Of a stretch of DNA of 64,000 nt, positions 17,944-59,540 are shown in pieces; the stretch's first letter is position 1, and every line of letters starts with the position of its first letter. The position numbers and the translations under genes were made by a program. The notes under the pieces are model-generated. The model was given only the letters and a program-made list of their open reading frames with translations, ran no database searches and was not told the origin of the DNA. Origin of the DNA: Eledone cirrhosa (lineage: Eukaryota); the NCBI GenBank assembly GCA_964016885.1, contig OZ024743.1:52576001-52640000 (forward strand), in the 5' to 3' direction.

Positions 17944-18319
17944 CACACACACACACACACACACACACACACACACACACACACACACACACATACATAC
18001 ACACACACACACACATATATATACATATATACACTTATATATATATATATATATATATATATATATATATATATATATAATATATTTAGAAACACACAGA
18101 TACATGCGGAAACACACATATATACATGAATGCATCCGCACCCAACTGTGAGTTAAGGGTGCCAACTTCACCGATGTTGCTCAATGAATGACTGGGACAG
18201 ACCAATTCAGTTTGAACCAGACTGAACCAGTATCAGAGTTAAAAATACATTATGAAGAGAGAAGAAACATTTAGATATAATTAGTAATAAAATGTATCAT
18301 ACCTAAACTGTTCCTAAAT

Positions 18320-18407
18320 TCCTCGACTACGTAGTTTCGTGGCATAAACAAAAACAATATATCAAAGATATAGAGTCCTTGCGAGGTCTGCCGACTTATC
18401 AAGAGGA
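18320..18407 (-). ncRNA. Type-I hammerhead ribozyme motif, U3-A8 variant
   Basis: tcctc TTGATAA gt(c)ggca...tgccac GAAA ctacgtag TC gagga; stem III palindrome ACTACGTAGT; GUC site. Confidence 0.75.
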
Positions 18408-18986
18408 TACCTCATTTTACTAGTCTCAAGAACGCGTCTACACGACGTGAGAAAGAATCCCAAAAGGCGGAGGGGGAGACAGTCACGCGATATAACGGTC
18501 GAGAAACAGAGCTAAGCCTCTTATAACCACGAAGAAAATACCACGGAGGCGGAGGGGGTATTCATATCGAGGCCGTAGAAGAGGTAGTGAAGAAGGCGAG
18601 AAGTATGAGTAATGGAAGCTTTCCAGTTGTCCCCACACTTCAAAGATTGCTCGACCAGAGGGAGTTATTAATATATTTAGAAACACACAGATACATGCGG
18701 ACACACACATATATACAATATATTAATAACTCCCTCTGGTCGAGCAATCTTTGAAGTGTGGGGACAACTGGAAAGCTTCCATTACTCATACTTCTCGCCT
18801 TCTTCACTACCTCTTCTACGGCCTCGATATGAATACCCCCTCCGCCTCCGTGGTATTTTCTTCGTGGTTATAAGAGGTTTAGCTCTGTTTCTCGACCGTT
18901 ATATCGCGTGACTGTCTCCCCCTCCGCCTTTTGGGATTCTTTCTCACGTCGTGTAGACGCGTTCTTGAGACTAGTAAAATGAGGTA

Positions 18987-19074
18987 TCCTCTTGATAAGT
19001 CGGCAGACCTCGCAAGGACTCTATATCTTTGATATATTGTTTTTGTTTATGCCACGAAACTACGTACTCGAGGA
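18987..19074 (+). ncRNA. Hammerhead motif copy with GUC changed to CUC
   Basis: Same as 18320-18407 but stem III reads actacgtact. Confidence 0.6.
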
Positions 19075-19577
19075 ATTTAGGAACAGTTTAGGTATGATAC
19101 ATTTTATTACTAATTATATCTAAATGTTTCTTCTCTCTTCATAATGTATTTTTAACTCTGATACTGGTTCAGTCTGGTTCAAACTGAATTGGTCTGTCCC
19201 AGTCATTCATTGAGCAACATCGGTGAAGTTGGCACCCTTAACTCACAGTTGGGTGCGGATGCATTCATGTATATATGTGTGTGTCCGCATGTATCTGTGT
19301 GTTTCTAAATATATTAATAACTCCCTCTGGTCGAGCAATCTTTGAAGTGTGGGGACAACTGGAAAGCTTCCATTACTCATACTTCTCGCCTTCTTCACTA
19401 CCTCTTCTACGGCCTCGATATGAATACCCCCTCCGCCTCCGTGGTATTTTCTTCGTGGTTATAAGAGGCTTAGCTCTGTTTCTCGACCGTTATATCGCGT
19501 GACTGTCTCCCCCTCCGCCTTTTGGGATTCTTTCTCACGTCGTGTAGACGCGTTCTTGAGACTAGTAAAATGAGGTA

Positions 19578-19665
19578 TCCTCTTGATAAGTCGGCAGACC
19601 TCGCAAGGACTCTATATCTTTGATATATTGTTTTTGTTTATGCCACGAAACTACGTAGTCGAGGA
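19578..19665 (+). ncRNA. Type-I hammerhead ribozyme motif, U3-A8 variant
   Basis: Identical to 18320-18407 on the opposite strand. Confidence 0.75.
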
Positions 19666-57500: not shown

Positions 57501-57605
57501 ATGTGTATATCTTTGTATGTATGTGTGTATATGTGTATATGTGTGTATGTCTGTGTGTATGTATGTATATGTGTGTATGTCTGTGTGTATGTATGTATGT
57601 GTATG
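54557..57605. repeat. ~3-kb satellite built from (TG/TA) dinucleotides, main unit ~30 bp
   Basis: Unit gtgtatatgtgtatatgtgtgtatgtctgt and variants; source of the 1000-aa C/V/Y/M ORFs. Confidence 0.95.
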
Positions 57606-57756
57606 CATATATATGAATCATATGGGAACATGCGATTATAAACAGGATGTCCCCCAAAAATATATACACATTTCAATATGCATTCTAATAAATATTGCCT
57701 GTACAGGTAATCAAAGTGTGTATACATCCTTTTGGAACACCTTGTGTGTGTGTATA

Positions 57757-58468
57757 TCATAATCTATAAAGCTCAGTGTGTGGTCATGCTCCTTCGTTAT
57801 AGAAATCTACGATATAGAATTTCTTCAATTGAAATTTACAATTCAGTAATCAAAATAGTTTCGATTGCGTCTTGACGCGGATCATTTTTTCAATTTCACC
57901 CACAATTACGCAAAAAATAGATAAAACTCAATATTTTACGATTTTTCTCTGTCATTTAAACTGCTAAACTCTTTCCACTACCATTCAAAATCTATACAAC
58001 TTCATACTTTCTGCTACTTTCTCTTTCCAAGCTTGATGGTGATACTGTCCGTTCACACCACTCCCTACTGTCTTAAATTTAGAAAACACATATCCTCTAT
58101 GAGGTTACTAAACCCGCTAGAAACAGCAGCTAACTCTCCCCCATATCACACCACTCCCTACTGTCTTAAATTTAGAAAACACACAGACAACCATGCAGAA
58201 CAACTCCATCGCAGCTCTGTTGTTCGGATGGCATCGTCTACGCGCGTGTTGCGCAAGTACTGTGAAACAATAAATTTCAACACTTTTTGCACAGAGATAA
58301 TATCCATAGGCGAAACTACAATTGTCACTGCTGGCGCAGCTCATGCTTCCAGGTCTGCAATTCATTCACCCAGTGCCTGGCAGACAAAAAAGTGGTGCCA
58401 TAAAATGGGTGGTGCAACCTAACTTTGGTAACTTAATGACCCCGAGCAACGCCGGGTTTTAATGCTAG
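57757..58468 (+). mobile_element. Non-autonomous Helitron
   Basis: A|TCATAATCTATAAAG start, cccgagcaacgccggg subterminal hairpin, CTAG|T end. Confidence 0.75.
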
Positions 58469-58836
58469 TATATATATATATAGGACTATATATATATATA
58501 TATATATATATATATATATATATATATAAGTTTAATCGGGAGTAGCGACAGTATGTAAGGAATTCAATACATAAACAGTTCTAGTCCTGTAGAAACCATT
58601 TCTATATTAAATATATATATATTAGTATGGAGGCAGTCAAAACCAGTTAGACCATTACTCACCAGAATACTTGATACTGGCATAGTAGAGTGGGTAATAT
58701 GAAAAAGTTGGGATCCCGACGGCTGAGCTCCTGCCGTTTCAACAGCTAGATCCGAACTGATCTAGCTATTGAAACGGTCGGAGCTCAGCCGTCGGGGTCC
58801 CAACTTTTTCATATATATATAATATATATATATATT

Positions 58837-59540
58837 ATTAGGGTAAATATTGATGCAATTCAATTCAAGCACTCAACGTACTTTTTCCACATAGGAGTGA
58901 CGGAGTAAATATCGAATAAGGAAAAGCGAAGTAGTTTCAGATGTTCAAGTCCTTTAATAATAATGCTGTGATATATATTTCAATGACGACACTGGCCACA
59001 CTGTTCTGTGTGCGAGTGTCGTGGCATCATCAGACAGCTTGTTACCAATTCTCACTCTTAACTTCCAATGTAAAACCATGATACCTAGAATTAAGTTTAT
59101 TTTCTCTTATGAGTTGATGGTCAGTCGTACTGTCCACGCTTGGTGAGAGGTAGTATTGTGACCTGTAAAAACTGACACTCTCCCATCCCCTCTGGCTTTC
59201 GGCTGACTGCCACAGTCGGGATGGGTAGCAGTAAACTATGGTACAGGCCTAGGTGGGCCGTTGAATTTCGTTGAAATCTGCGCAGACCGGTGGGGGTGAA
59301 TTGGTACTCACAAGGGAACGGATGAAGAACCCAAAAGCACACACTTCATCCGTTCCTATGTCGATTCAATTTGGATTGCCTCGGAAACATAACCTTATTA
59401 TGTAACAAGCTGTCTGATGATGTCAAGACACTCGCACACAGAACAGTGTGGCCAGTGTCGTCATTGAAATATATATATCACAGCATTATTATTAAAGGAC
59501 TTGAACATCTGAAACTACTTCGCTTTTCCTTATTCGATAT
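58837..59540. mobile_element. Inverted-repeat element (~135-bp arms, ~355-bp spacer) with hammerheads at 58965-59038 (-) and 59409-59484 (+)
   Basis: gctgt CTGATGA ..gacact..agtgtc.. GAAA tatata(ta) TC acagc on both strands; (TA)n flanks. Confidence 0.85.

Follow-up and report, generated by a model that had tools for sequence, protein, structure and literature searches.

Head-to-head foldbacks in the genome of Eledone cirrhosa are 5'-truncated ends of Penelope-like elements that pair a long with a short 3' end

In L1 twin priming, two target 3' ends prime two cDNAs, which leaves an inverted segment joined by microhomology; the second priming site varies, and there is no overlap between the segments. 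Inverted copies have also been described for Penelope-like elements (PLEs) with an endonuclease (EN+). According to Arkhipova (2013; PMC3846280), who proposed self-priming on an antisense template, such copies lie head-to-head more often than in any other way and form a palindrome where they join. Craig (2021; PMC8557442) described a tail of 30-40 bp, often at one end, and, at the 5' end of the element, a copy that is inverted and 5'-truncated; its supplement notes one Hydra entry with a 5'-truncated inverted copy. The head-to-head polarity is thus already published (PMC3846280, PMC8557442), and both PMC8557442 and PMC11167929 treat the origin of the tandem and inverted PLE structures as an open question. 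In the latter (Frangieh 2024), the anole Poseidon PLE cleaved and extended both strands in vitro, started at two internal RT sites bounding the tail and was predicted to be dimeric. No difference in start site was seen between the two strands, and pairing on one molecule lay outside the tests described there (PMC11167929).

The window studied here is a stretch of 64,000 nucleotides from Eledone cirrhosa (contig OZ024743.1, positions 52,576,001 to 52,640,000). An earlier note had described nine inverted hammerhead elements of shared polarity in it, and this was found to be correct, with the left arm on the minus strand and the right arm on the plus strand in 9/9; all were oriented head-to-head, with the 3' ends outward. 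Self-BLAST confirmed the nine foldbacks as inverted repeats (the outer arm of 45625-46580 was found separately) and also the claim that the family A centres differ (29240, 31276 and ~46412). Identity between the arms was 89-100%, and the real elements were 69-168 nt longer than first delimited, on one side only, that of the tail. The foldbacks are 5'-truncated ends of PLEs sitting in (TA)n, and the resemblance to inverted pLTRs of Penelope that had been pointed out is correct.

Each family has two discrete 3' ends, a long (tailed) and a short one, lying 38-182 nt apart in the element, and all nine foldbacks combine a long with a short end. The left arm of the family E1 foldback (18086..18717, minus strand) has its long 3' end at 18086, a hammerhead at 18325-18402 and slightly more than one 592-bp unit, and the right arm (18717..19740, plus strand) has about 1.7 tandem, retrozyme-like units, a hammerhead at 19583-19660 and a short 3' end at (TA)n. 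The long arm of family B (27967..28160, minus) contains a whole hammerhead and a 73-nt tail (27967-28039), while its short arm (28162..28227, plus) holds the hammerhead 3' half. Family A, a pLTR of putative Hydra type, forms a foldback with a long arm at 28941..29235 (minus; tail 28941-29029) and a short arm at 29236..29451 (plus) that extends a few nt further 5', and the same 26-bp duplication is found in both. An older subfamily of A has a tailed long arm at 31000..31276 (minus) and a short arm at 31277..31469 (plus), which is identical to its partner across 192 nt. The long arm of a further family A foldback (45626..46412, minus) has its hammerhead split by a 543-bp insert absent from the short arm (46430..46578, plus; whole hammerhead). 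We take this insert (45778..46320, minus) to be Helitron-like because of its 5' TC, its 3' hairpin and CTAG and its position between A and T; it is non-autonomous and has relatives at several other loci.

Family C, likewise a putative Hydra-type pLTR, is present at 36652..36788 (minus; long arm with the hammerhead 3' half and a tail of ~80 nt) with a short arm at 36790..36833 (plus), and again at 58623..58755 (minus, long) and 58756..58814 (plus, short). The short arm of the family D foldback is on the left (46625..46691, minus) and the long arm, with a 69-nt tail, on the right (46686..46831, plus). Family E2 has a long arm at 58836..59045 (minus; 72-nt tail) and a short arm at 59046..59543 (plus), and the 356-bp spacer is likely part of the latter; locus L144 continues into 68 nt of this spacer in sense. 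The window holds five further foldbacks of the same polarity: one of family H at 22922..23099 (left end long, right end short), two of family F at 35836..36578 (left end long, a SINE-like copy between the arms) and 41863..42343 (left end short, right end long), a two-armed family H insertion at 58529..58611 with arms lacking common sequence and a long arm that stops within the tail, and one of family J at 61541..61661 (left end short, right end long).

The full type I hammerhead motif was found by descriptor at -18325, +19583, -29080, +29351 and +46469; as a control, the descriptor gave 16 matches in 30 real loci and 1 in the same loci after shuffling. A hammerhead core with stem II was identified at -28131. 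The foldbacks beginning at 31083, 36729 and 58697 were oriented by homology to family copies bearing the whole motif, and the hammerhead orientation of those beginning at 46631 and 58912 was read by eye. Among the 150 of 213 matches listed from an Rfam scan of the window there was no hammerhead, only miRNA-like matches from hairpins, and single-strand (monomer) folds were weak, with z below -2 in 1/8. The hammerhead assignments therefore rest on the motif and stem pairing, and these are predicted ribozymes. Cores and stems were present, with U3-A8 variants in families C and E1 and a non-canonical core in family F.

Other repeats resembling foldbacks were also found. One tail-to-tail palindrome was present in the window, at 46884-46979; it was rejected as a counter-example to the polarity since it belongs to a SINE-like repeat without a hammerhead core. 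This repeat ends in (TA)n (46850-47143 and 36200-36375), and the palindrome at 46884-46979 is made of two of its 3' ends, opposed across TA. In a family D foldback at L163/L164 the 3' end of this repeat stands where the short end would be, a hint that the repeat may use the PLE machinery. An element at 21498-22541 has 178-bp terminal inverted repeats, an internal 79-bp tandem array and relatives in L106, L081 and L089; no hammerhead was found in it. An inverted pair (20700-21020 and 25464-25728) lies 4.4 kb apart with nested inserts between and had no other copy in the genome sample described below. An AT-rich tandem array at 52933-53676 was also a large imperfect palindrome by self-BLAST, and a tandem duplication of ~520 bp at 26720-27500 had a hammerhead-like core (CTGAGGA...GAAA) at 26746 and 27268.

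To follow the polarity across the genome (3.0 Gb), 126 evenly spread 10-kb stretches at round coordinates were sampled and arms were mapped with 17 references, each cut from one natural copy; matches that stopped short of either 3' end region were removed before pairs were counted. Within 6 kb this gave 173 consecutive pairs of same-family arms, of which 122 stood head-to-head, 24 tail-to-tail and the remaining 27 in tandem. When only pairs within 50 bp were considered, 84 were head-to-head and none tail-to-tail, the joined same-family pairs agreeing with the window in 84/84. The tail-to-tail pairs all had gaps of at least 62 bp, and 19/24 included an arm already in a head-to-head pair. (TA)n bordered both sides in 102/115 pairs and one side in 13, making a target-site duplication unreadable. 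There were 136 unpaired arms, 57 of which had a TA run within 120 nt upstream; on informal inspection, many of these 57 bore a tiny inverted fragment from the opposite end, and many lacked one. Short MITE-like hairpin stumps occurred about once per 10 kb in the sample, and a large share of such hairpins in this genome is explained as retroelement stumps. At L062 (51-5407) a short/short foldback of family C forms the centre of a 5.3-kb palindrome (27 mismatches) that mirrors several unrelated elements and TA runs; the palindrome may have arisen by inverted duplication at the DNA level, seeded by the foldback, or be an assembly artefact.

The ends of the head-to-head pairs were then classified. 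With 3 of the 122 pairs left aside as belonging to a family without a defined tail, 115/119 were long+short, 3 short/short and 1 long/long, an excess with p 1e-29 against 0.5, although about eight of the pairs had supplied references from the sample itself and were long+short by construction. A family D copy, L179, was also long/long. A second, anchored method covering 80 insertions gave 72 long+short, 2 short/short and 6 mixed-family calls, several of them weak; among same-family insertions only, 72/74 were long+short. Counted without family assignment, the end tags occurred at about 1:1, for example 44 long and 42 short in family C. Symmetric-looking pairs in families I and M turned out to be internal TA runs. 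A foldback of family c3 (L063, 4566-4943) had equal ends on both sides and no tail was found, which makes it a possible exception to the rule. In 9/15 families an RCTC...GAGY hairpin motif began 1-10 nt beyond the short site, at a shuffle frequency of 0.006-0.03 in each family. The counted pairing of long with short ends is what the present data add to the published PLE polarity; neither strict pairing of this kind nor twin priming for PLEs was encountered in the openly available papers searched, and older Penelope papers may have it.

Two of the families, A and C, led to RT/GIY-YIG ORFs with published Hydra-clade motifs. Locus L032 (family A) contained, in order, an inverted truncated copy, a pLTR, an RT/GIY-YIG frame of 661 aa and a pLTR with tail, all in (TA)n. 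In locus L190 (family C), an inverted copy precedes tandem units of 3531 bp, in which the frame is intact. The family C frame had YRDD, DIESYY and VIY..YIG, together with RLRWR, SDKT, CNCPDRSIC, CNLC and CKH and without CCHH, and the equivalents of these Hydra-type motifs were read in the family A frame. At the motif level, therefore, a single ORF joins RT and GIY-YIG endonuclease as in EN+ PLEs, and the features described for the Hydra clade (RWK-like, DKT, a CxCx5C linker, no CCHH, CxxC and CxH) are all present. Partial-tandem pLTRs, an inverted 5'-truncated copy and a one-sided tail were found in both L032 and L190, and a type I hammerhead motif lay in the pLTR, sense to the ORF, the strands agreeing at both loci. 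Judged by the published motif descriptions, families A and C appear to be new Hydra-type PLE families. A Pfam search of the PLE ORFs returned 0 families and a PDB search no significant match, and there were 2215 homologues, all unnamed.

ORF remnants were located 5' of F, K, J, N, D, C and A-like ends, with matching strands at some loci, and before ends of the opposite strand at others; none among the examined loci was tied to families B, H, E1 or E2. Tandem 592-bp E1 units, each with a type I hammerhead, were found in the window, L071 and L086, and this tandem unit makes E1 resemble retrozymes. Tandem 310-bp hammerhead units of another family, also retrozyme-like, occur at L124 (3650-4750). 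L190-L191 holds four near-identical family C tandem units with open 784-codon frames, a very young and possibly active PLE array.

The 5' reach of the two arms was compared in 60 insertions. The short-ended arm extended further in 33 and the long-ended arm in 5, and in 22 the arms were level within 8 nt. Young copies differed by hundreds of nt with the short-ended arm further 5', as in L194 (-1513 vs -241), L096, L130, L138 and L031. In 13/72 insertions, such as 58529-58611 in the window, the arms had no common sequence and the long arm ended inside the tail. Later deletion of the palindrome centre could mimic some of these cases, least plausibly in near-identical copies. Among 35 junction rows from families A and C, 18 were direct joins and 17 had inserted bases (one window junction counted twice and one spurious row included), which often repeated adjacent arm sequence. 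Microhomology at the direct joins averaged 1.9 nt vs 0.74 in a shifted null (p 3e-5).

The two arms of an insertion share one source. In 22 chosen loci, minority bases were common to both arms at 45 sites and private differences numbered 17; both alleles were seen elsewhere for 7 inter-arm differences, 6 of them in one low-complexity tract. Arms of family C differed by 0.053 within loci and 0.16 between loci, and the 26-bp duplication was present in both arms of 29030-29450 and absent from the rest of the assembly. These observations are compatible with a single RNA as template, with two RNAs of the same locus and with copying from arm to arm. Arm ends were also clustered. In family C, 28/50 were found 52-62 nt 5' of the short site; in family A the arms gathered at -125 to -140 from the hammerhead cut. 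Both places look like what we take to be initiators, suggesting that the cDNAs may run off an RNA start within the pLTR.

Two-sided priming at two start sites is the simplest account of these data, in which we infer the cutting, the priming and the dimer. With a probability of roughly 0.7, the foldbacks are two-armed PLE insertions for which the RT-endonuclease cut both strands of the target and primed one cDNA from either side of the break. The protein, for which a dimer is predicted in another PLE, would bind the RNA around the tail, which appears to carry a conserved ACTC...GAGT-type hairpin just beyond the short site. Of the two target ends, one would use the long site as its start and one the short site, and both cDNAs would extend toward the RNA 5' end, stopping at variable points; alternatively, both would run off a fixed pLTR RNA start, giving near-perfect short palindromes. 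The two cDNA 3' ends would be joined via 1-3 nt microhomology or short inserted bases, and the gaps would then be filled. The earlier proposal that the palindromes arise during integration was borne out, and the first mechanism that it offered, in which both ends of a break act as primers, fits the arm reach and the end counts. A need for the self-complementarity of the (TA)n target that it named is not supported: in a rotifer, inverted pLTRs are described together with target duplications (PMC3846280).

It is also conceivable, though unlikely, that a hairpin DNA is self-primed or snapped back off the target first, and that its two ends are afterwards cut back to the long and the short site by the endonuclease, either before integration or in its course. 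This would account for the head-to-head polarity, the one-source arms, the private 26-bp duplication and the presence of the tail on either arm, and it is close to the published ideas of self-priming (PMC3846280) and 'EN-mediated resolution' (PMC8557442). However, the 13/72 insertions with non-overlapping arms would need a short-site cut in the single-stranded loop, or later deletions, and closure of loops as large as 3.4 kb would depend on 1-6 nt. Moreover, the tail ends coincide with the in vitro RT start sites reported in PMC11167929.

We consider it improbable that ready-made foldbacks act in general as non-autonomous masters that are re-copied whole, their polarity and ends being inherited, although this may be true for a subset. 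A family D junction recurs at several loci, with a remnant in L182, as such masters would lead one to expect, but the query held that junction and the set is therefore biased. Junctions in families A and C were locus-specific, except at duplicated loci such as L010/L012, and the tail lay on either side of the same family D junction; both observations speak against re-copying.

The second mechanism of the earlier note, in which a single target-primed cDNA snaps back and copies itself outward, did not hold up and is very improbable. The minority bases common to the arms at 45 sites and the near-perfect palindromes in 22/60 insertions agree with it, and the 26-bp duplication is explained equally well by snap-back, by conversion or by a template common to both arms. 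A snap-back copy cannot pass its own start, however, and the further-5' arm should therefore own the long end, which was the case in only 5/60; a DNA-templated copy also has no cause to stop at a fixed site. The greater reach of the short-ended arm (33/60) and the arms that share nothing thus argue for two cDNAs. That the palindromes are fold-back artefacts of long reads or assembly is scarcely credible: none of the reads or contigs listed spanned a whole foldback, but arm divergence of up to 11%, family-specific one-sided tails and later inserts in one arm, such as the Helitron-like one, argue against it, as do the words over 29244 carrying the window's base, whose depth of ~23-28 in two runs of one sample, possibly the assembly's own, was near that of the unique flank.

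A more specific version of two-sided priming, which we put forward tentatively and at somewhat less than even odds, is that in Hydra-clade PLEs two-ended priming on one RNA is obligatory: a hairpin-bound dimer would start a cDNA on each side of the hairpin, and the trailing polymerase would displace the leading cDNA. If so, every insertion would be two-armed, apparent solo copies having a tiny second arm; the tail, the inversion and the polarity would be explained together, and the retrotransposition route would be distinct from those of LINE and LTR elements. If the two polymerases collided on one RNA, long arms might accumulate at the short site, and the search for such a pile-up, in which no clear one was found, counts against this version; four family D copies, from the biased set, ended within -6 to +10 nt of the short site. 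Two-sided priming predicts that each target molecule receives one start of each kind, long and short, and the intact, near-identical and multi-copy state of family C makes an in vitro test practical.

Compared with L1 twin priming, the second site of these PLEs is fixed and close to the first, and the arms usually overlap. Family E1 is like the animal non-LTR retrozymes (bioRxiv 10.64898/2026.07.22.740005) in its tandem 592-bp units with a type I hammerhead in each, but E1 bears a two-armed PLE footprint. With the Hydra clade (PMC8557442), compared by motif descriptions, the elements share the C-terminal GIY-YIG, RWR, DKT, CxCx5C, CxxC and CxH, the lack of CCHH, the hammerhead and the (TA)n target, whereas their units are 3.5-3.8 kb and not 'generally <3 kb'. 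Two start sites bounding the tail, cutting and extension of both strands and an AT-rich target are points of likeness to anole Poseidon; in its available text, PMC11167929 neither assigns its start sites to opposite sides of a single insertion nor explains inverted copies. The head-to-head inverted pLTR, junction palindrome, partial tandems, one-end tail and microsatellite targets are as in published EN+ PLEs, whose layout L032 matches exactly (PMC3846280, PMC8557442). Unlike in those, the tails here are 38-182 nt and not 30-40 (PMC8557442), most copies are short stumps, and the pairing of long with short ends is near-obligatory (115/119) and not 'optional' or 'often'. These counts allow two-sided priming to be told apart from the published idea of self-priming, and they argue against the self-priming model of PMC3846280.
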